Positions 707 through 11,912 are shown, counted from the stretch's first letter. The stretch is DNA of 12,002 nucleotides from a virus (IMGVR_UViG_2740892258_000005); one strand, 5' to 3'. Notes: generated by a model not told the origin, from the letters alone. Program-made: numbers and translations.

Positions 707-1291
707 TCAGAGTTTAGCGAATTTTTCGAGGGTGCGAATAAGCTGCGTGACGAAGCCATATTCGTTATCGTACCAGGCGACCGTTTTCACCAGTTGTAAA
801 TCGCCCACGGCGGTAATTTCCGTTTGCGTGGCATCAAACACCGAACCGAAATGGCTGCCAATGATATCGGAAGAGACTATTTCTTCATCAGTATAACCAA
901 ATGACTCGTTATTGTTTGTCGCCTTTTTAAGCGCGTTGTTCACCTCTTCGGCAGTCACTTTCTTTCCGAGAATCGACACCAGTTCAGTGACCGAACCTGT
1001 TTTCACCGGCACGCGTTGCGCATGACCTTTCAGTTTGCCGCTCAGTTCCGGGATCACCAGACCAATGGCTTTTGCCGCCCCCGTAGTGTGGGGAATGATA
1101 TTTTCTGCCGCTGCGCGTGAAGCACGTAAATCTTTACCACGTGGGCCATCCACCAGTGACTGGGTGCCGGTATAGGCATGAATGGTTGTCATCGTGCCGA
1201 CTTCTATCCCGAAACTGTGATGCGCCGCGCGATAAATGCACTCTATCTTGTGCGATAAATGGCATCCACGCGGCGTTTCATTATTTGAAAA
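707..1291 (-). pseudogene. gapC: Glyceraldehyde-3-phosphate dehydrogenase (gapC-type) remnant: C-terminal ~60% only, N-terminal part missing
   Basis: The 707..1192 ORF translates to GAPDH C-terminal domain sequence (..[49 protein letters not shown]..). The same frame upstream (1193-1291) still shows weak GAPDH similarity ([14 protein letters not shown]....C aligning to the SNASCTTNC active-site region) and then hits a stop at 1313-1315. There is no Rossmann-fold N-terminal domain and no credible start; homology ends where the invertase gene begins. Confidence 0.8.
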
Positions 1292-1295
1292 AGAA

Positions 1296-1868
1296 TTACA
1301 TTTCAGGTTGCGTTATGACAGTCCCAACAGGGTGATAGCGGTAGATCGTTGACAGTCCAATATCATAGATAATTGCCAGCCGCTTTCTGTCATACCCTTT
1401 CTGGAGCAATCTTGCGATCTGCTCATGCTGCTCCTTCGTCAGTTTCGGGCGACGTCCTCCAACTCTTCCTTGTGCTCGCGCAGCAGCCAGTCCTGCCAGC
1501 GTGCGCTCAACTATCAGTTCACGCTCCATTTCTGCCAGTGCACCCATCATATGAAAAAAGAACCTTCCCATCGGAGTGCTGGTATCGATTGAATCCGTCA
1601 GACTGCGAAAATTGACACCTTTTGCGCGTAGCTCTTCTGTGAGAGCAATGAGGTGTTTCATTCTTCTACCCAACCGATCCAGCTTCCAGACCACCAATGT
1701 ATCCCCTCTTTTAAGGCACTTTAAAGCGCGTTTCAGGCCTGGTCGTTCCGACTTGGTTCCGCTCATTTTGTCCTCAAAAATCTGTTCACATCCTGCGCAC
1801 ATTAATGCATTGCGTTGCAAATCTGTGTTTTGGTCATTTGTTGACACACGTATGTAGCCAATCAGCAT
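1296..1868 (-). CDS. pin: Serine recombinase, DNA invertase of the Hin/Gin/Cin/Pin family
   Basis: 190-aa product from ATG at 1868: [97 protein letters not shown].., near-identical in its motifs to Gin/Pin (catalytic Ser in [10 protein letters not shown]-terminal helix-turn-helix). GGAG-type RBS upstream. The ORF track's 5' extension back to 1982 is read-through of the inverted repeat, not the real N-terminus. Confidence 0.92.
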
Positions 1869-1922
1869 TAAAAATACTCCCTTTTGAGTGGTTAAAGTAC
1901 TGAGATAATGTGGGGAGGATTT

Positions 1923-1948
1923 GAGAGATAAACGTTGGTTTGGGGGAA
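1923..1948. promoter_or_regulatory. Candidate left crossover site for the invertase (hix/gix-like 26-bp site)
   Basis: Bottom strand reads TTCCCCCAAACC AA CGTTTATCTCTC. The inner half-site plus the AA core is identical to the right site and resembles hix/gix half-sites as I recall them (TTCTTGAAAACC AA.. / TTCCTGTAAACC GA..). The core dinucleotide sits exactly at the outer edge of the inverted repeat. Confidence 0.5.
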
Positions 1949-1990
1949 GGCTCTGCATTGCCTGTTGGTGTACCGGTTCCATGGCCCACC
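1935..1990. repeat. Inverted repeat, left arm (56 bp, 56/56 identical to the reverse complement of 3409-3464)
   Basis: Base-by-base comparison: ttggtttgggggaaggctctgcattgcctgttggtgtaccggttccatggcccacc equals the reverse complement of 3409-3464. A second block, 1988-2046, matches the reverse complement of 3266-3324 perfectly, with a decaying extension to about 2069/3243. Confidence 0.95.
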
Positions 1991-2326
1991 CTCCGTCTTC
2001 CTGATTTACGCGGTGAGTTTATCCGTGGATGGGACGACGGGCGCAAGATTGACGAGGGGCGTAAGTTGCTTTCATGGCAGAAAGGTACACTGGTCGGCGG
2101 TCATGACGATAACGATTCTTCGCTGGATATCTCGTACATGAGTAACGGAAATAATATTGACTATGGCGGCGATAAGGTGTTTGCGGGGAATTACCGTAGC
2201 GATTATTTGTGGTACGCAATTCTGGGTGGAACAAACAGTCGCGCAAAAGCCGAATTAAACGGAGCATTCTTTAACATAACCCGCCCCCGCAATATCGCGT
2301 TTAACTATATCGTGAGGGCGGCGTGA
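1940..2326 (+). CDS. Alternative tail-fiber C-terminal (variable) cassette; no own start or promoter, expressed only after inversion
   Basis: The frame encodes (L)GEGSALPVGVPVPWPT-LRLPDLRGEFIRGWDDGRKIDEGRKLL...NIAFNYIVRAA with TGA at 2324-2326. Its first ~35 residues are shared with the active fiber gene and the C-terminus ends with the same NYIVRA motif as the active copy (..ALNYIVRAV). The listed start at 1940 is a TTG inside the repeat, not a real initiation codon. Confidence 0.75.
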   Translation: MGEGSALPVGVPVPWPTLRLPDLRGEFIRGWDDGRKIDEGRKLLSWQKGTLVGGHDDNDSSLDISYMSNGNNIDYGGDKVFAGNYRSDYLWYAILGGTNSRAKAELNGAFFNITRPRNIAFNYIVRAA

Positions 2327-2332
2327 TACCGT

Positions 2333-2947
2333 TCAGCTGGCAAGTGCCAGTGGCGCTTCCGGCCAGCTGATTTCAGGTGCCGTGCTGATATCCAGTGCGT
2401 TCAGCTCGTCGATATAATCCAGCACGGCGTTCAGTTTTGCCGTTTCTTCTGGTGTCAGACTGCGACCTGCCCGCAGTTTGAGGTTGATAAGATCGACGGA
2501 CGCCATCGCCTGTTTCACCCGTTGCTGGCGTTGCTGTCTGGCAACCTCCAGTTCTGCGGCTCGCTGCCGTTCAGTATCGGTTACCCACGCCTCACCGTTC
2601 CAGGTATCCCATGGCGTGGCCGGCTGTTTTGTGGTGGTGTCCGCCGGGTAATCACCCGGTTGGGTAATCAGAACGGGGTTACCGTTCTCCGTGCTGTATA
2701 CCGTCTCGCCGCGGTGATCAGGCACATGCTCCCACCCGTTCAGCGTGGCAGTCCGACAAACCACGTAACCCGAAATTGCCTCCGGCGGTGCATCGGCGCA
2801 CGAATGTGCCGGAGTACCCACCCCAAGGGCGAGATACTCCACAGAGGATGAGGTGTATTCCCGGGTTTCCTCGTCATAGTGATATACAGTGATATCGCCC
2901 GCTACAGTGGCGATACCGTTTTCATCCAGAACTGCAGTGTTACTCAT
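2333..2947 (-). CDS. tfa: Tail fiber assembly protein (Tfa chaperone, lambda Tfa / Mu U family)
   Basis: 204 aa. WEHVPDHRGETVYSTENG..WNGEAWVTDTERQR and the C-terminal ..LDISTAPEISWPEAPL parallel lambda Tfa (WHLVEDHRGKTVYDV..WNGTAWVKDTEAE...VDTSTAPDIEWPAVP) as I recall it. The start ATG (2947-2945) overlaps the fiber stop TAA (2949-2947) by 1 nt, indicating translational coupling. Confidence 0.9.
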   Translation of the reverse strand: MSNTAVLDENGIATVAGDITVYHYDEETREYTSSSVEYLALGVGTPAHSCADAPPEAISGYVVCRTATLNGWEHVPDHRGETVYSTENGNPVLITQPGDYPADTTTKQPATPWDTWNGEAWVTDTERQRAAELEVARQQRQQRVKQAMASVDLINLKLRAGRSLTPEETAKLNAVLDYIDELNALDISTAPEISWPEAPLALAS

Positions 2948-4278
2948 TAAACTGCCCTCACAATGTAATTAAGTGCAATGCTACGGGGTCTGACAGTGAT
3001 ACCCTTCGCATACCCGCTTCTGATAGAGGTCAGAATAGTAGCCTGCATACCATTGTCTGACATTGCCATGACAGGATCGCTGAATGTTGTCCCGTCCGGC
3101 ATTTTAAAGCTGCCCTCACGAAGGTCTGTAATGGAATCTTCATTGTTGAATCCCATGCCGACTATCCCCGAGGTTCCCGTAGTGTCCTGGTTATAATAAT
3201 CCAGCATTGCTGTTCTTAACAGCGTTGCCCCTTGTGCGGACAGCAACTTACGTCCTGTATCAACTTTGCGCCCGTCGTCCCATCCACGGATAAACTCACC
3301 GCGTAAATCAGGAAGACGGAGGGTCGGGTAGACTCTGGCCAGAACAGGATATTGTTCTTTTGTAAAGGCGCGCCCGTCGCACTTTAACCAGCCTGCTGGC
3401 GGTGTGGCGGTGGGCCATGGAACCGGTACACCAACAGGCAATGCAGAGCCTTCCCCCAAACCAAGGTAATTGAGGACATCTTTTATACTGCCCTTAGCGA
3501 TAATCGCGCGACCAATAGCTGTAAGGGTTGCCAGCGCTGCGCGGTCTGCTCCGGTAAAATAAGGCAACCGATCTGCTGCAGTGGCAAGTCCTGCGAGAGC
3601 AGTGAGCGTGGCATCTGCCGGTTGTTTTCCGTTTGCCAGATCGTATGCAGCCTTGACCGCTTTCGGTGTGGCGGCCAGTATTTCAGACGTGCTGTTGATG
3701 GCACTGCTCAGTTGTACGGTGCCTTTTGCCGTCAGCGAGGCAGCAGGCACTCCCGTTATCTGACTCCACGGGTGAGTGTGGCTGACGGGCGCCTTGCCGG
3801 CTGCAAGGTCGTATGCAGCCTTGACCGCCTTCGGCGTGGCAGCCTCAGTTTCTGATTGACTGTCCGTGGCGCTGCTCAGTTGTACGGTGCCTTTTGCCGT
3901 CAGTGAAGCCGCAGGCACTCCCGTTATCTGACTCCACGGGTGAGTGTGGCTGGCAGGCGCCTTGCCGGCTGCCAGGTCGTATGCAGCCTTGACCGCTTTT
4001 GGTGTGGCGGCCAGCGTTTCAGAGGTGCTGTTGGTGGCACTGCTCAGTTGGGTGAACCCCTTAGCTGTCAGTGTCGCGTCCGGGTGGTTACGGGAACGTA
4101 CGTGTTCAGCCAGTGACTGTGCGGCTTCCTCCGTTTTCTTCTTCAGCCATTTCGTCCTGTTTGCCAGTTGCCGGGGGGCTCGATTTGATATCCCGTCTGC
4201 ACCACCCAGAACCGGATCTGATGTCTCCAGTTGATAGATATTTTCTTCCCACTTTTCTGTTTCATTCAGGTTTCCCAT
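2947..4278 (-). CDS. Side tail fiber protein (Stf-like): constant N-terminal part, three fibre repeats, invertible C-terminal receptor-binding part
   Basis: Long - strand ORF with three tandem ~56-aa repeats (LTAKGTVQLSSATxSxSETxAATPKAVKAAYDLAAGKAPxSHTHPWSQITGVPAAS, the phage tail-fibre repeat type seen in lambda Stf) and a C-terminal PVPWP...GWL..G..F....YP.LA..YP..LPDLRG.FIRG motif. The probable start is ATG at 4278 with a GGAG RBS; the track's start at 4284 is TTG. Confidence 0.88.
   Translation of the reverse strand: MGNLNETEKWEENIYQLETSDPVLGGADGISNRAPRQLANRTKWLKKKTEEAAQSLAEHVRSRNHPDATLTAKGFTQLSSATNSTSETLAATPKAVKAAYDLAAGKAPASHTHPWSQITGVPAASLTAKGTVQLSSATDSQSETEAATPKAVKAAYDLAAGKAPVSHTHPWSQITGVPAASLTAKGTVQLSSAINSTSEILAATPKAVKAAYDLANGKQPADATLTALAGLATAADRLPYFTGADRAALATLTAIGRAIIAKGSIKDVLNYLGLGEGSALPVGVPVPWPTATPPAGWLKCDGRAFTKEQYPVLARVYPTLRLPDLRGEFIRGWDDGRKVDTGRKLLSAQGATLLRTAMLDYYNQDTTGTSGIVGMGFNNEDSITDLREGSFKMPDGTTFSDPVMAMSDNGMQATILTSIRSGYAKGITVRPRSIALNYIVRAV
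3409..3464. repeat. Inverted repeat, right arm (56 bp), inside the fiber gene
   Basis: Reverse complement is identical to 1935-1990. It is separated from the second repeat block (3266-3324) by 84 bp (3325-3408) that has no counterpart in the left arm. Confidence 0.95.
3451..3476. promoter_or_regulatory. Candidate right crossover site for the invertase (hix/gix-like)
   Basis: Top strand reads TTCCCCCAAACC AA GGTAATTGAGGA; compare my recollection of hixL TTCTTGAAAACC AA GGTTTTTGATAA and gix TTCCTGTAAACC GA GGTTTTGGATAA. The AA core at 3463-3464 lies at the repeat boundary. Confidence 0.5.
3610..4077. repeat. Tandem direct repeats, period 168 bp, about 2.8 copies, inside the fiber gene
   Basis: For example ggcactcccgttatctgactccacgggtgagtgtggctg occurs at 3744 and again at 3912. 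The repeats encode the three ~56-aa fibre repeats. Confidence 0.8.
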
Positions 4279-4280
4279 AA

Positions 4281-4859
4281 TCAACTGCTCCCGTGGTTAT
4301 AACTGCCATCATGGATGGCGGTATTGTTATAGCGAATGGCCACAGACTGATACTCCAGGCTGGCCAGATGGCAGCGGGCCGGTGCAAATGCAGCCAGCGT
4401 CTGACGCAGCATCGCGGCCTGATCGTTAGTAATGGGCTGTTTCAGAATAACGCGATAAACTGCCCAGGCGGCTGCATCTCCATGAACAAACAGTCCGTTA
4501 TAGCTGCGATTGCCGTCGTAACTGAGACGACCTGTGCCTTCAATCAGATCCACTTCACCAAAGCCAAAACGGCGGATAACTTCCCGGATTGACCACGGCG
4601 TCCCTTTATACCGGTGCAGTTCGATGGCTGCTTTTATAAGCATGCGGCGAACATCGTCCGATTCCGCCAGCTCCCAGCCATCGCCAGACAGTGAGAACTG
4701 CTCGCCCAGCCATGGCAGCGCGGAACTGTCGACGATATCGACGAGAAAGACCATCAGTACGCTCAGGTCGATGTTATCCAGCCGTCCTGCCAGTCTTCCC
4801 AGCGTCCTGAGACTGATATCACCCTCAAGCGGTGGCGGGAGTTGTAATGGCTCAGTCAT
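4281..4859 (-). CDS. Baseplate/tail protein, P2 gpI-like (Mu gp48-like)
   Basis: ..LPWLGEQFSLSGDGWELAESDDVRRMLIKAAIELHRYKGTPWSIREVIRRFGF.. follows the gpI pattern (LPWLAWAFSVDRW..KGT..AIRRV). The probable start is ATG at 4859 (GGAG upstream) rather than the GTG at 4871. The stop overlaps the fiber start region. Confidence 0.8.
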   Translation of the reverse strand: MTEPLQLPPPLEGDISLRTLGRLAGRLDNIDLSVLMVFLVDIVDSSALPWLGEQFSLSGDGWELAESDDVRRMLIKAAIELHRYKGTPWSIREVIRRFGFGEVDLIEGTGRLSYDGNRSYNGLFVHGDAAAWAVYRVILKQPITNDQAAMLRQTLAAFAPARCHLASLEYQSVAIRYNNTAIHDGSYNHGSS

Positions 4860-6349: not shown

Positions 6350-6877
6350 TCAATGGGAATGGTGATTAGAGTTCTGACCATCGGCAAATATGTCACCCGT
6401 TGCATGGGCGCTTCCGTTGATTTCCAGATCACCGTTGAGTGTCGCGTTGCCGTTGATTGTGGTAACTCCCGTGAGGTCAATGCTTTTCCCTTCCAGTGAG
6501 ATATCGGCGGCAACCTCCACCACGATACGCTCAATACCTCCTCTGACCGTCAGCGTATGGGTCGCGCGGTTATAACTGAACTCCGCGCCATCAGCGTACT
6601 TCGTGCCCCGGACGTTTTTATCACTGAACGGTGGTTTATCGACGTCTGAATACACCGCGCCCAGAATAACACCATCCTCGCCGTTGGCATCGAGCAGCAC
6701 CTCAACCTGCTCCCCCACGTCAGGGAGCCAGTAATCTTTGTTATCCTGGGTATTGCGCTGCAGCACGTTAAGCCAGTTTGTGCGCAGGTTATCGCATTCA
6801 GGCAGACGAACGCGGGCCTGAACCCTGTCGGCATCAACGGCACTGACCGTACCGACCTGACGAGTGACACCAGTCAT
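6350..6877 (-). CDS. Baseplate spike/assembly protein, P2 gpV-like
   Basis: 175 aa. The N-terminal OB-fold-like region ..RVQARVRLPECDNLRTNWLNVLQ...WLPDVGEQVEVL.. parallels P2 gpV (..RCRVQTGG..TDWLQWL...WAPSVGEQVLIL). The start ATG overlaps the upstream gene's stop (ATGA). Confidence 0.85.
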   Translation of the reverse strand: MTGVTRQVGTVSAVDADRVQARVRLPECDNLRTNWLNVLQRNTQDNKDYWLPDVGEQVEVLLDANGEDGVILGAVYSDVDKPPFSDKNVRGTKYADGAEFSYNRATHTLTVRGGIERIVVEVAADISLEGKSIDLTGVTTINGNATLNGDLEINGSAHATGDIFADGQNSNHHSH

Positions 6878-8098
6878 TTTTTCTTCTCTCTTATTACTGT
6901 GGACGTGCTGCCGTCCGGTTTATAGATGGTCAGCGTCCGGGTTTTGCCGGTTTTTTTACCTTTCTTCGCCTTGCCCTGTGTGACCGGCCCCCGTGCCACT
7001 TCCAGCTCTGTGGTGTAGCCGCTGTTACGCTCAAACGCATGGAGGGCAGTGGTTATGAGCCATGGCCCGGATAACTGCCCAAAACCCACCAGTTCAATTT
7101 TGTTGCCTGCTGTCAGTTGAGGTGTTCCCGTCAGCGTCAGGGAGCCGTTCTGCTGGTATTCGTTATGTCTGGCCAGTGCTGAATCCGCTTTAATCCGGGC
7201 ACTGCTGGTATTCGTTATGTCTGGCCAGTGCTGAATCCGCTTTAATCCGGGCACTGTCCGGGTCGCTGACGCGGCTGTTAACTTTAAGTGAGTCAGCGCT
7301 GGTAACCTTACCACCTTTGAGCTTTTTGTCGCTTTCACGGGTACCACCATCAGCTTCGTAGACGATCAGTTTTTTACTGCTGCTTTTCTGGTGTTTTACC
7401 TTTGCAGATTTATAGACCCGGTTGATGGTGTCACGCAGGGAAAAGCGGGCCACATCCTGCGGTTTTAACTGCCTGACCGGCTCCTGACTGCGCAGTGTGG
7501 CCAGATGAGAAAAAATCAGCTGGTCACTGACCACTTTCACTGCATAACCATACTCGCTGGCCAGCCGGCGCAGAAAACCCACGTCGGTTTCAGCATACTG
7601 GGTCACCCGGTCGATTCTGATGGACTCAATGCTGCCCACCAGTTTCAGTCGGTGCTTTCTGGCAATCCGCCCCGCAACAGCTGCCAGCGTGGTGTTCTCA
7701 AAACCACGACTGGTTTTAGTCCGCAGGGCACTGTTAACCGAGGTGGCCACCCCACGGATAGAAACAACGGAAGCGGGCGAACTCACTTCGATCTCGTCTA
7801 TAGAGAACGTACCGCAGGACAGCAGCTTCTCGCCCTGATAGCCCATTTTCAGCGTCAGCGTGTCACCCTTGCCCGGATACCATTTATCCAGCCAGCGGCC
7901 ATCGGTGTCGTCCAGCTCCACCTCAATGGTATCGGACTCATTTTTGATGTTATCGCTCCAGGTCACACGGGTGACATAAGGCGCGATATCAGAGGTGATG
8001 TTTTTCTGCAGATACCACAAAGTGAACACCGGTGTCAGCACATCGCTGACGCCGGTTAACGCTGATGTGACTTGCGCAGTGCTGTTTATCTCAGCCAT
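6874..8098 (-). pseudogene. P2 gpD-like (Mu P-like) tail/baseplate hub protein, frameshifted by a 52-bp tandem duplication
   Basis: The two overlapping ORFs 7190..8098 and 6874..7350 both encode the peptide SARIKADSALARHNEYQQ, each from a different copy of the 52-bp repeat. Removing one copy gives a single 390-codon frame whose C-terminus (..GFGQLSGPWLITTALHAFERNSGYTTELEVA..) matches the P2 gpD C-terminus (..WTITKVTHFLNNSGFTTSLELEV..). Confidence 0.8.
7150..7253. repeat. Perfect tandem direct duplication, 2 x 52 bp
   Basis: 7150-7201 and 7202-7253 are both ctgctggtattcgttatgtctggccagtgctgaatccgctttaatccgggca (52/52). The unit length is not a multiple of 3. Confidence 0.95.
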
Positions 8099-8298: not shown

Positions 8299-9182
8299 CA
8301 CACACTCCTCGTCAGTATTCTGGCGGCCATTGCACTTAATCCCGGAGACATGCGGTTGAATGCTGTGCCGGCGGCGTTAAGCTGCCCGGAAACGGTATCC
8401 AGAGCACCTGCAATATTTCTTTTGTCCACACCACTCAGCGCAGACTGTGCCTGCTGTACATACGTGACTGCTTCGCTGGCTGTTCTGGCCAGACTGATGG
8501 CATCGGGCATGGATTCAGAGAGTGCGTTAAACGCCGGAACACTTTTCCCCAGAGCCCCGGAGATATTACCCAGTCCGCTCATCAGCCCCGGCACACGGGT
8601 CAGTGCGACAACGGGGTTATCCTTCATTTTCTGTGTCACCCGAACGGCGCTGATAGTGGTCTGGAGTACAGACTGCGCCTGTTTCGCATAGTTGACGCCG
8701 TTGCGGATGAACTGCGCCACCCCTGAAGGTGAAGGTATGGCACCGGAGACCGCCCCGACACCCGGGAGCTTCGTGCGTATTGCCGGTGGTTGCAGAGTAT
8801 TTTTCGGGTCACCGGTGTATTCCCGGAGAGACACGGTGGCACTGACAGCCAGCACGTTGCCGGTACTGTCAGTCTGCTCGCTGGTTGCAGTCACATCGGT
8901 AATCACGAACCAGCCGCGATAGTCACCGTTGCCGAAGACCAGCGCCAGTGCCTGATGGGCTTTCATGGCTGTTCGCAGTCTCGCCAGCTCCACATCGGGT
9001 ACACAATAATGCTGATGGAAAACCAGAGTTATCTGGATTTCGTCCAGCCTGTCGCCGACGAACTGCAGGCCAGGCTTACCCCCGATGCGGGCATGCTCCG
9101 CATAATCGACGCCGAACGTGGCCTCGAAGCCGTCCCAGTAGGTAATCAGCTCAAACTCAATATCACCCAGTACGGCAAACAT
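8298..9182 (-). CDS. Tail protein with P2 gpU-like N-terminal domain (Mu N-like position in the module)
   Basis: 294 aa. The N-terminal ~120 aa (FAVLGDIEFEL...GKPGLQFVGDRLDEIQITLVF....LARLRTAMKAHQALALVFGNGDYRGWFVITDV....SATVSLREY) fit the gpU pattern. The C-terminal Ala/Ser/Gly-rich half is unassigned. The start ATG overlaps the tape measure stop (TGATG). Confidence 0.6.
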   Translation of the reverse strand: MFAVLGDIEFELITYWDGFEATFGVDYAEHARIGGKPGLQFVGDRLDEIQITLVFHQHYCVPDVELARLRTAMKAHQALALVFGNGDYRGWFVITDVTATSEQTDSTGNVLAVSATVSLREYTGDPKNTLQPPAIRTKLPGVGAVSGAIPSPSGVAQFIRNGVNYAKQAQSVLQTTISAVRVTQKMKDNPVVALTRVPGLMSGLGNISGALGKSVPAFNALSESMPDAISLARTASEAVTYVQQAQSALSGVDKRNIAGALDTVSGQLNAAGTAFNRMSPGLSAMAARILTRSV

Positions 9183-10258
9183 CAGCGGTACTCCTTACGT
9201 TGTTTCTGAGCCAGCAGACGCTCCAGCATTTTTTCCAGCTCATGCAGACTCATATTCAGAGCACCAGTCAGTCCTGCAGGCGCTGTGGTTTCCCTGCCAT
9301 TGAGGAAAAACTGAGGATTAAAGCTGACCTGGATACCACCAGACGTTCCACCGCCGGTTGCAGCTGCACCACGGCCTGAATATCCGGCAGCCATGATTTC
9401 AGGCGAGGGGATACGGGGAACATCCGGTGTCATCTCATTTGCCAGACGTTGCCCTGGTAAAATCGATGTCCGGGTGGAGAGCGGGATAGCGGGCATGGAA
9501 GACAAACTATTGATTACGGCTCCGATCGCATTTTTAGCAGACGACATAAACCCGTTGATATCGGGCAACGGCATACTGAAGCGAACACCTGAAGTGTTAT
9601 CCCGTATTTCTGGCCCCTGAATGCTCACGGGCATTCTGGGGAGCAGTTCACTGGCCATTCGCTGCCCGGCCAGAGCTGCAAGCGGAGTGGTCCGCTGCAG
9701 GCCAATGGCGGCCCCCTGCGCGATATTGTCACCAAAGCCCATAAACACGCGGCTCGGCGAATGAATACCCAGCTTTTCACTGAACCAGCCACTGATGCTG
9801 TCACCCATTCCGGTTACACTGGATTTGAGCGACTCCCATTTGTTTTTGATACCGTTAATCAGACCGTCGACAAGATGGCCACCGAAGTCGGTGAACTTTG
9901 CCGGCAGATCAACACCAAGATATTTCAGCGCAGCTGCAAAGGCTTTATAGAGCAGACCTGCCGGCGACCAGTTAATCAGCAGCTTACCAGTTCCCGCGAT
10001 ACCGCCGTTAAAGGCTTCCTGAATGTCAGCCCAGCACTGTTTAAACCAGCTACTGATGCTGTCACCCATTCCGGTTACACTGGATTTGAGCGACCCCCAT
10101 TTGTTTTTGATACCGTTAATCAGACCGTCGATAAGATGGCCACCGAAGTCGGTGAACTTTGCCGGCAGAGCAACGCCGAAATATTTCAGCGCAGCCGCAA
10201 AGGCTTTATAGAGCAGGCCTGCCGGCGACCAGTTAATCAGTAACTTACCAATTCCCAC
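9182..10258 (-). CDS. Tail tape measure protein, C-terminal segment (separate frame from the N-terminal segment)
   Basis: 357 aa in an open frame whose only candidate start is GTG at 10258 with no RBS. Contains two ~87-aa tandem repeats (GKLLINWSPAGLLYKAFAAALKY.GV.LPAKFTDFGGHL.DGLINGIKNKW.SLKSSVTGMGDSIS.WF) and a Gly/Ser/Pro-rich C-terminal half typical of tape measure proteins. Confidence 0.7.
   Translation of the reverse strand: MGIGKLLINWSPAGLLYKAFAAALKYFGVALPAKFTDFGGHLIDGLINGIKNKWGSLKSSVTGMGDSISSWFKQCWADIQEAFNGGIAGTGKLLINWSPAGLLYKAFAAALKYLGVDLPAKFTDFGGHLVDGLINGIKNKWESLKSSVTGMGDSISGWFSEKLGIHSPSRVFMGFGDNIAQGAAIGLQRTTPLAALAGQRMASELLPRMPVSIQGPEIRDNTSGVRFSMPLPDINGFMSSAKNAIGAVINSLSSMPAIPLSTRTSILPGQRLANEMTPDVPRIPSPEIMAAGYSGRGAAATGGGTSGGIQVSFNPQFFLNGRETTAPAGLTGALNMSLHELEKMLERLLAQKQRKEYR
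9779..10251. repeat. Tandem direct repeat, period 261 bp, two copies (~95% identical over ~210 bp)
   Basis: 9782-9990 and 10043-10251 align with only scattered substitutions. 261 bp equals 87 codons, so the duplication is in frame. Confidence 0.85.
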
Positions 10259-11912
10259 AATGCCGCCGTGCGACGGCGCTAAATCCGGTCACCAGCCAGC
10301 GGAGCTTACCGCCTTGCCCCAGTGCGAGCGACAGACGAAGCCAGTTGGCCCGAAGTAAAACAGCATTTTTCCAGACACTTACAAAGGGGGAAATAAGGAG
10401 ATTCAGCCCCAGTTTGAGACCAACAGTCGCTATCTTAATCGCAAGGAGCGCACTGATGAGCTTAAAAGCCCCACTGACAAATTGCGGGTGAGTCGCTACC
10501 CAGTGTTTTGCCCCCTGAATGAGTGGAAGCAGTTCCTGAGTCAAAGAAATAAAAGATGGAGCTAATTGATCGCCCAGCGTAATTGCCAGATCGCGACTGC
10601 TGACCATAAGTGTTTTAGTGGCTTCAAGGGGAGATTTCAGCCGCTGATCATAAGCACTGGCAAGCAAATCGTTATCCGCAGCCCTGAGAGCACCGGCACG
10701 GATCTCTCGATATCTGTCCATGTTGGCCAGCATCGGGCGGATAAATGCCATGACCTGCATATCCGCGAACATATCGCCCAGACCAAAGTTTTTCGCCAGA
10801 GCCTGAAGTGCCTCATCTCTTGCCGTATCATTCTTTATTTTCATGGCTGATTTGAAGCCGGCCAGCGCTTCGGGGCTTTTGGCATTGAGGTAACGTTCTA
10901 TAACACTCAACATCCCTTCAATCGGAGAGATCCCCGCAGCTTTATAACTCGCAATAGATCCCTGCAAATCAATACCCAGATCAGCAAACTGTTTCTGAGT
11001 ATCGCGGGCAAAAATTTTGGTAAGAAAGTTTTTAAAATTATTGGCTGCTTCGTCGGTGGAACCTGCACCGATTTTTGCTATCTGGAGACTGGCCCCGATT
11101 TCAGCAACAGCCTCTTTTCCACTGGCAATACCCGCCATCATTGGGGCCAGGGACTGCATCCACTTGACCTGATCCGGGATTTCAAATGACCCCTGGTCAC
11201 CGGCATAAGCCATAATATTCTGAACGGCACCAAAATCTCTGGCCGCACCTTTCAGGGAGTTTTGCCAGACTGCGGCCACTTTTGCCCAGTCCTGAGCAGA
11301 CGTGCGTGTTGCCGTTGCCGCGCGGGCAATATCCGGCATCAGAAAACCGATATCTGACACATTATCAATATTGTCGCTGATGAGTGAACCCACCGCCTCC
11401 TGCAGCTCATCCTGATACTGATTGTATTTAAGCGCCCAGCCTTTTATCTGTCCGGCAAGTGCATCCCGCGTTTTATTGTCATATTTTGCGGTGATCGACA
11501 TATCAATCATTTTGTCCTGAAAAGACATGGACTGCTGAACGGCAGGGGAAACCGTATGATAAACAGTCTGTGCCATGCCATACGCTTCAATCCCCTGACC
11601 ATACAGCGCCATGCGGTTAGCTTTCAGCGCATCACTGGTAGCGGATGCCGCTGACAGACGGCGCTGCTGGCGCTCAATTTGCTCCATGGTGCGGCTTACC
11701 CGCAGCAGCTCGCTGTTGAGATGCTGCATCCGGGAAGAACCCAGTTGACCATAACGTTCTGTTGCACGGGTTAAAGCGTTCTGACGTTCCTGCAGGCGGC
11801 GTGAGGTATCGCTCAGGGAATCAAGCGCACGGCGGGTACCGCTCATTGCAGAACGGAATGTGCTGCCAATCATCCCGCCGATAACAACGCCGACTGAAAA
11901 CTGTCCCGACAT
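10245..11912 (-). CDS. Tail tape measure protein, N-terminal segment
   Basis: 555 aa; ATG at 11912 with a strong GGAGG RBS 9 nt upstream. The N-terminal region is predicted alpha-helical and charged (..RRLQERQNALTRATERYGQL..EQIERQQRRL..), the core is tape-measure-like, and the C-terminal part is hydrophobic (..FKLISALLAIKIATVGLKLGLNLLISPFVSVW..). It ends at TAA 10245-10247, 14 nt inside the next ORF. Confidence 0.8.
   Translation of the reverse strand: MSGQFSVGVVIGGMIGSTFRSAMSGTRRALDSLSDTSRRLQERQNALTRATERYGQLGSSRMQHLNSELLRVSRTMEQIERQQRRLSAASATSDALKANRMALYGQGIEAYGMAQTVYHTVSPAVQQSMSFQDKMIDMSITAKYDNKTRDALAGQIKGWALKYNQYQDELQEAVGSLISDNIDNVSDIGFLMPDIARAATATRTSAQDWAKVAAVWQNSLKGAARDFGAVQNIMAYAGDQGSFEIPDQVKWMQSLAPMMAGIASGKEAVAEIGASLQIAKIGAGSTDEAANNFKNFLTKIFARDTQKQFADLGIDLQGSIASYKAAGISPIEGMLSVIERYLNAKSPEALAGFKSAMKIKNDTARDEALQALAKNFGLGDMFADMQVMAFIRPMLANMDRYREIRAGALRAADNDLLASAYDQRLKSPLEATKTLMVSSRDLAITLGDQLAPSFISLTQELLPLIQGAKHWVATHPQFVSGAFKLISALLAIKIATVGLKLGLNLLISPFVSVWKNAVLLRANWLRLSLALGQGGKLRWLVTGFSAVARRHCGNW

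Follow-up and report, generated by a model that had tools for sequence, protein, structure and literature searches.

Introduction

In the classical tail-fibre switches, the G segment of Mu, the C segment of P1 and the P segment of e14, a chaperone gene (tfa or U) lies beside each of the two alternative fibre tips. A three-isoform gin shufflon has been described in the Enterobacter prophage FRphi, with isoform frequencies of 50/25/25 (PMC13418256). Its elements, a constant 5' part of the fibre gene, several promoterless 3' cassettes with a crossover site at the head of each, and an invertase of the Gin family, are shared with the locus described here. The Min system of plasmid p15B is a multiple-inversion fibre system with the same layout as FRphi. 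The present locus lies at positions 1,296 to 4,278 of a 12,002-nucleotide stretch of DNA assigned to a virus (IMGVR_UViG_2740892258_000005), referred to below in its entirety as the window, and comprises a DNA invertase gene, a tail-fibre gene, one tail-fibre assembly gene (tfa) and a silent fibre-tip cassette. An initial annotation of the window had described it as a Gin/Pin-type host-range switch that is asymmetric in having only one tfa and a deletion in its silent arm.

Trimerization of the T4 fibre protein gp37 requires the specific chaperone gp38 (PMC3004832), and tail-fibre assembly proteins are built of modules, the N-terminal domain being variable and binding the fibre and the C-terminal domain being conserved and trimerizing (PMC9608196). 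In this study the locus was compared with its relatives and with these known systems. We put at about 80% the probability that it is a standard Gin/Pin-type tip switch in a Mu-superfamily prophage inserted in gapC, that it is built to a one-tfa design common to its family, and that the second tip, tip B, carries an 87-bp deletion private to this contig.

Results

The invertase and its crossover sites

The invertase, tfa, fibre shaft, cassette heads and tip tails were mapped by tblastn in 45 loci, comprising 7 E. coli genomes, 37 viral contigs and the window. The gene at 1296..1868 (minus strand) encodes a 190-residue serine DNA invertase of the Gin/Pin family (Pfam Resolvase, 8e-51; HTH_7, 1e-12). 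The protein is identical to Mu Gin at 138 of 180 residues (77%) and contains the catalytic-serine motif YIRVSTNDQ, which aligned with YVRVSTNDQ of Gin. The invertases of six relatives (L001-L006), among which both orientations of the segment occur, were 100% identical to that of the window. The true start of the invertase is MLIGY at 1868, and the mechanically called open reading frame (ORF) extends to 1982. The additional open frame (1869-1982), 38 codons upstream of MLIGY, spans a crossover site and continues antisense to the cassette head; it is probably meaningless, the relatives being annotated with the 190-residue form.

Two 26-bp crossover sites were identified. The invertase-proximal site lies at 1923..1948 (GAGAGATAAACG TT GGTTTGGGGGAA, with the central TT at 1935-1936), and the fibre-internal site lies at 3451..3476 (TCCTCAATTACC TT GGTTTGGGGGAA on the phage-forward strand, with the central dinucleotide at 3463-3464). 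The two sites are inverted relative to each other, have a TT core in each case, and resemble the gix site of Mu (TTATCCAAAACC TC GGTTTACAGGAA). A 26-bp site of the form nnCATAAAAACG TT GGTTTRGGRGAA heads all cassettes in the 45 loci, and the two sites of e14 are likewise of this form. The sites of the window represent the two commonest variants, and that at 3451-3476 is the most common, with 17 occurrences in the loci.

The inverted repeat of the locus begins precisely at the central TT of the crossover site. Its left arm (1935..2046) is made up of a 56-bp block (1935-1990) and a 59-bp block (1988-2046), and its right arm (3266..3464) of the 59-bp block (3266-3324) and the 56-bp block (3409-3464). 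Both blocks are perfect, as determined by exact-match search and in agreement with a repeat finder.

Organization of the fibre gene, tfa and the silent cassette

The expressed tail-fibre gene (2947..4278, or 4284, minus strand) encodes a 443-amino-acid (aa) protein that consists of a constant shaft and a tip of type A, the latter encoded from ~3468 down to 2950. Three Phage_fiber_2 repeats and a Collar domain (residues 285-332, 6.8e-15) were detected in the protein using Pfam, and the identical 443-aa protein is encoded on 7 public contigs. The ATG of the sole tfa (2333..2947, minus strand), a chaperone gene of the TfaE type (Pfam Caudo_TAP, 3.5e-28), overlaps the stop codon of the tip-A fibre (TAATG). 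A sequence search of Tfa against the PDB gave no match. The silent, promoterless cassette, which carries tip type B, lies on the opposite strand (1940..2326, plus strand), and its stop codon is 6 bp from that of tfa in convergent orientation. No Pfam match was obtained for the silent arm, whereas the intact type-B cassette of a relative (L004) matched Collar at 1.4e-15. ORF lists and exact-match searches reproduced the coordinates that had been given for the invertase, the fibre, tfa, the silent cassette and the perfect 56- and 59-bp inverted blocks.

Tandem 168-bp (56-aa) repeats at 3626..4129 (minus strand) encode the repeats of the fibre shaft, and their copy number is variable in the relatives. 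The constant part of the fibre is ~272 aa long in the window and up to ~495 aa elsewhere, and total fibre length in the relatives ranges from 443 to 665 aa. Because the number of shaft repeats varies so widely, fibre length is polymorphic in the family, as is tip identity.

The invertase is predicted to recombine the inverted 26-bp sites at 1923-1948 and 3451-3476, which would turn over ~1.53 kb and give the tail fibre a different C-terminal tip. In the window's orientation, the constant shaft is joined to tip A, with tfa downstream and translationally coupled. Inversion would join the shaft to tip B instead and leave tfa convergent and antisense. Phage that arose from the window copy after such a flip would carry a collar-less fibre of 401 aa.

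Orientation and tfa content of related loci

Two probes that join the invertase gene to tfa, one for each relative orientation, were used to count orientations in complete E. coli genomes. The two genes pointed the same way, as in the window, in 305 genomes and opposite ways in 279, such that tfa is antisense to the late operon in ~48% of states. The prophage of strain N61 is 100% identical to the window across thousands of bases and carries the segment in the flipped orientation. Inversion is, by these counts, frequent in the family. Nothing required for inversion appears to be damaged in the window, and we infer that inversion still occurs in this strain. The Pfam domains, the identity to Gin, the crossover sites and the presence of both orientations all support the view, already taken in the initial annotation, that the locus is a putative Gin/Pin-type host-range switch that swaps the tail-fibre tip.

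Each member of the mapped prophage family has one tfa, always directly after tip type A, and also has one or two tfa-less tips (types B-G). The gaps between cassettes are just 5-30 bp, which rules out a hidden second chaperone gene. Three-cassette relatives, which include L002-L004, L006, L007 and others, have four reachable states, and all four were observed (L003, L006, L010 and L004, respectively, providing an example of one state each). Tip B never precedes a co-oriented tfa in this four-state scheme. Since every family member has one tfa and both orientations are about equally common, the asymmetry is not peculiar to the window copy. The ORFs and the 6-bp convergence bear out the earlier observation that there is a single tfa and that no co-directional tfa would follow the new tip upon inversion. 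The suggestion that this distinguishes the window copy did not hold, because one tfa was found in every family locus mapped, and a tfa-less arm is common in the mapped family. The single tfa is best regarded as the standard family design and not as a sign of decay.

A sister family, located on viral contigs of 57-97 kb, has at most 10 cassettes and one tfa; its invertase and Tfa are 84% and 57% identical, respectively, to those of the window. The sister-system loci (L029-L040) include L033:1-5334, L035:502-5971 and L038:2725-7773, in which up to 10 cassettes are present. These loci are possibly carried on P1/p15B-like phage-plasmids, and several of their tips contain HxH motifs like those of the gp37 needle.

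Additional arrangements were observed at individual loci. In L014 (1-3588), a second module of tfa, tip A and invertase lies beside the first. In L021 (2762-7663) two shaft ends face each other, and in L039 (3955-4474) a shaft end abuts a truncated invertase.

The tips resemble the tip of T4 gp37

The active tip matched the structure of the T4 gp37 tip (2XGF) at 4e-14, and a short tail fibre entry (9CUY) was also matched. The 2XGF match spans the collar region; gp37 also has the C-terminal NIAFNYIVR strand. At least 15 tip types have a common head and a C-terminal ...RPRN(I/V)AFNYIVRA end. The tips amount to small versions of the gp37 tip: each intact tip has a collar domain and a variable part and ends in a conserved ...RPRNIAFNYIVRA strand.

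Sequence variation in the tips was assessed among relatives L001-L026, and the tips were free of stop codons. The ratio of non-synonymous to synonymous polymorphism (pN/pS) was ~6.9 for tip A, 0.8 for tip B and 0.13 for the invertase, at a divergence too low for a conclusion. At similarly low divergence, the tails of tip D had 13 non-synonymous and 0 synonymous changes. The pN/pS ratio does not distinguish diversifying from relaxed selection. The head variants KCDGRAF/QCNGATF, ARVYP/ARAYP and PPAG/PPEG occur on several different tail types in the same relatives. This shuffling of head variants among tails points to recombination between heads, or to gene conversion, at positions inside the crossover sites.

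An 87-bp deletion in tip B is unique to the window

A stretch of 87 bp, or 29 codons of the collar core (3323..3409, +/- 3 nt, minus strand; peptide ATPPAGWLKCDGRAFTKEQYPVLARVYPT), is present in the active arm and absent from the silent arm, where the junction lies at 1990/1991. The size of this indel was the same by block coordinates, by direct extraction, by the 87-nt gap relative to N61 and by the 87 extra bp in CE10. It is in frame and is flanked by CCCACC and CCGACC, which are imperfect 6-bp direct repeats with an exact microhomology of 3 nt (ACC). The earlier description of an in-frame deletion between these short direct repeats was therefore accurate except in size, which had been given as 84 bp and 28 aa. 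The silent tip B retains its variable part and its C-terminal NIAFNYIVRAA strand, and the fibre of 401 aa that the flipped window copy would encode is in frame and lacks the collar core.

The 29 deleted residues correspond to approximately residues 824-852 of gp37 in the 2XGF alignment, if the chain is taken to start at gp37 residue 785. Residues 814-860 make up the region of gp37 that resembles the gp12 collar (PMC3004832). The loss of the Pfam Collar match and the position of the removed residues within the gp37 collar region both suggest that the deletion is damaging, and they uphold the proposal that it removed the core of a conserved fibre motif. The deleted tip B is presumably non-functional and would yield a misfolded fibre after a flip.

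The 87 bp could also be viewed as an insertion in the active arm that is peculiar to the window copy. This was ruled out, as all relatives, e14 StfE and T4 gp37 carry the segment.

Probes and patterns that span the deletion junction were used to search for other shortened copies. None of 5,426 complete E. coli genomes contained an uninterrupted match to a 60-nt junction probe. Where the probe was covered in full, the match consisted of two pieces that span 147 bp, which indicates that the 87 bp are present in those genomes. A 40-nt junction pattern was absent from genome, viral and metagenome contig collections, and a 32-nt pattern was found in 0 of 46 loci, 19 of which had the intact junction. 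Type B is intact in CE10, Z0117EC0117, AVS0750, N61 and others, and only one of the 59 heads tabulated in the family is shortened, that of the window's own type B. The shorter arm is thus neither the ancestral nor the common state, the junction having been found nowhere else among the sequences searched.

Further differences between the window and N61

The window and N61 have essentially no point differences outside repeat regions and differ by four indels, of which the 87-bp deletion, with its loss of the collar core of tip B, is one. The second is a perfect 52-bp tandem duplication (7150..7256, minus strand; 2.1 copies at 100% match in Tandem Repeats Finder) that frameshifts a gpD-like (late control D) baseplate gene. 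This duplication is the sole difference from N61 across the gpD-like gene, and it splits the gene into ORFs 7190-8098 and 6874-7350. The third is a 221-bp deletion at 10269/10270 (site 10245..10270, minus strand) that frameshifts the tape-measure gene into ORFs 9182-10258 and 10245-11912, with products of 555 aa and 358 aa. This loss lies inside 261-bp tandem repeats of the tape-measure gene, at window positions 9783-10270. The fourth shortens the shaft by ~294 bp and leaves the fibre in frame. By exact protein look-up, the truncated 302-aa gpD product and the 555-aa tape-measure product occur in the window's contig only.

The locus lies at the end of a transposable prophage

The whole window is the 12,002-bp draft contig CVOH01000149.1 of assembly GCA_001245225.1, and its right edge falls inside the tape-measure gene. 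Host sequence occupies the left end, with the 3' end of aldA at 6-665 and a fragment of gapC, encoding a protein like glyceraldehyde-3-phosphate dehydrogenase, at 707-1192 (minus strand). The prophage is inserted within gapC at 1217/1218, with host gapC to the left of 1218. The terminal ~78 bp of the prophage (1218..1295) start with TG and contain repeated CGATAAATG motifs, and 17 of 22 terminal bases match the right end of Mu.

Matches in complete E. coli genomes start at window position 1218, and the host flanks differ from genome to genome. The genes that abut the same end of the element include aroA, rfaH, yehY, lom, a gene of the hycH family (beside hyfI), a cysteine hydrolase gene and gapC, and these flanking genes are often truncated. 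One prophage end is contained in the window; the TG...CA ends and the GCTATC target duplication were taken from the near-identical prophage of N61. The N61 annotation includes a protein with an integrase catalytic domain (transposase-type), an ExeA-family ATPase, Gam and Mor. The early operon of N61 is divergent from the late genes, an arrangement that we take to be closer to that of BcepMu than to that of Mu. Based on the variable flanks, the Mu-like end, the TG...CA ends and target duplication of N61 and the transposase-type gene set, the region is predicted to be the invertase end of a transposable Mu-superfamily prophage that is common in E. coli and occupies many insertion sites.

In CE10 (L001, 4817-5950), the same prophage has a fibre gene that the annotation breaks into several pieces. 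The CE10 prophage is nested in another prophage, beside a truncated lom and a terminase gene, and looks like another decayed copy.

Discussion

The comparison of the window with its relatives separates what is general in this locus from what is private to one contig. The switch and its single tfa belong to the family, and the 87-bp deletion is best explained as a private lesion or an assembly error and not as a minimal design. Three indels, the 87-bp and 221-bp deletions and the 52-bp duplication, point either to decay of this prophage copy or to faults in the draft assembly. The initial annotation had offered two readings of the silent arm. For the window copy the decaying arm appears to be the better of the two, and the minimal switch was not supported, given that the junction is unique and that other type-B copies are intact.

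Several points weigh against a standard switch with a privately deleted tip B. The window is a short-read draft contig, in which the 87-bp deletion may be an artefact. The perfect 52-bp duplication, too, may have come about where contigs were joined, and the argument for a decaying prophage is the weaker for it. No promoter was found that could drive the flipped tfa and account for functional fibres in the tfa-less states. A scan of 1200-4400 on both strands found no sigma-70-like site, yet it also missed the invertase's own promoter and is thus uninformative with regard to a tfa promoter. Finally, the possible Fis-dependent enhancer in the 5' part of the invertase gene was considered at the level of sequence, this coding region being conserved with gin and pin.

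The explanation that competes best is that all three indels arose as errors in the short-read draft assembly, tip B and the tail genes of the actual prophage being intact. The window is an entire draft contig, and all three indels are unique to it within flanks that are 100% identical to N61. A perfect 52-bp duplication would be expected from an untrimmed k-1 overlap at a contig join, and the 221-bp loss within 261-bp tandem repeats is typical of repeat collapse. The 87-bp deletion fits this explanation less well. Its junction has only 3 nt of exact microhomology, across which a de Bruijn graph or a gap-filler would not normally join, and the deletion keeps the reading frame cleanly. Short direct repeats, moreover, commonly give rise to real mutations through slippage or illegitimate recombination. 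We regard assembly error at all three indels as unlikely, at about one chance in five.

The initial annotation also proposed two routes of inversion, one site-specific at the outer repeat edges and one homologous between the inner blocks. The 26-bp sites at the outer edges of the repeat give good support to the first, and the mosaicism of heads and tails indirectly supports homologous exchange in the heads. It is nonetheless highly improbable that RecA-type recombination between the 56- and 59-bp blocks, rather than the invertase, is the main driver of inversion. The shuffling of head variants among tail types does imply exchange inside the heads over evolutionary time, and a crossover in the inner block would be expected to give back a complete tip-B fibre and to transfer the deletion to tip A. 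Against a main role for this route, the invertase is intact and conserved, a canonical 26-bp site heads every cassette and the repeat starts exactly at the central dinucleotide. The near 1:1 ratio of orientations and the occurrence of all four states also fit frequent site-specific inversion, and repeats of 56-59 bp are poor substrates for RecA. That tip B still works as a receptor-binding tip without its collar, and folds unaided by a chaperone, can be dismissed almost entirely, for although the deletion is in frame and spares the variable part and the C-terminal NIAFNYIVRAA strand, the shortened tip is unique among all cassettes and databases searched, it lacks the region homologous to the gp37/gp12 collar together with its Pfam match, and the 29 residues are kept in all other type-B copies.

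The role of the chaperone is a question for the family as a whole. In two relatives (L027 and L028), a Tfa 90% identical to that of the window is paired with a quite different tip. Because so similar a Tfa accompanies a different tip, and because the C-terminal strand is common to tfa-linked and tfa-less tips, a generic rather than a tip-specific chaperone is favoured. We tentatively propose, at somewhat worse than even odds, that throughout the family, and in the 10-cassette relatives too, many gp37-type tips have one TfaE-type chaperone gene between them; the tips would fold without a co-expressed chaperone, or tfa would be expressed independently of orientation, or half of the progeny would be sacrificed. 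Any of these three options, if true, would alter current views on the chaperone dependence and the engineering of gp37-type tips, and the family thus offers a simple, testable question on chaperone dependence. The set of at least 15 interchangeable gp37-type tip cassettes with a single tfa also constitutes a natural parts list for engineering the host range of phages and tailocins. The window itself is of little importance in this respect, being a standard fibre switch with a one-off lesion or assembly error in a spare tip.

Comparison with known systems

One of the nearest known systems is the G segment of Mu with Gin. In both, the phage end encodes an invertase (77% identical) with the invertible segment as its neighbour, inversion swaps the C-terminal part of the fibre because one crossover site falls within the fibre gene, and the phage is transposable with a similar terminal sequence. 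In Mu, however, each arm has its own chaperone gene, U or U', and the variable parts of S/S' are large and lack the collar motif, whereas the window has one TfaE-type tfa, small gp37-type tips and no mom gene. In having one tfa, the window and its mapped relatives depart from all three classical two-chaperone switches, those of Mu, P1 and e14. A literature search on pinB and the B segment found nothing relevant.

Another is the e14 P segment with PinE (stfP-tfaP / tfaE-stfE), the crossover sites of which are of the same class. In the stfE cassette of e14 the head is the same, collar motif included, and the RPRNIAFNYIVRAA end is identical. TfaE, encoded after this cassette, shares 59% identity with the window Tfa over 199 aa. 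In contrast to the window, e14 has a tfa in each arm, the tip of its StfP arm is of an unrelated type, and the element is a non-transposable lambdoid remnant. The tips also share the collar motif and the C-terminal NIAFNYIVR strand with T4 gp37, which is assembled with gp38 and gp57A, but they are much shorter, are exchanged by inversion and are accompanied by a Caudo_TAP-type Tfa instead of gp38.

With regard to FRphi, the four-state scheme of the three-cassette relatives of the window predicts isoforms at 50/25/25. The window differs from such multiple-inversion systems (Min or shufflon type) in having two sites and two cassettes, and is thus a simple flip-flop; its relatives with three cassettes, and those with up to 10 (L033, L035 and L038), do belong to the multiple-inversion type. 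Taken together, these comparisons place the system as one of a known kind: it is a Gin/Pin-type tip inversion whose cassettes are of the e14 type and number two, within a family of multi-cassette systems.

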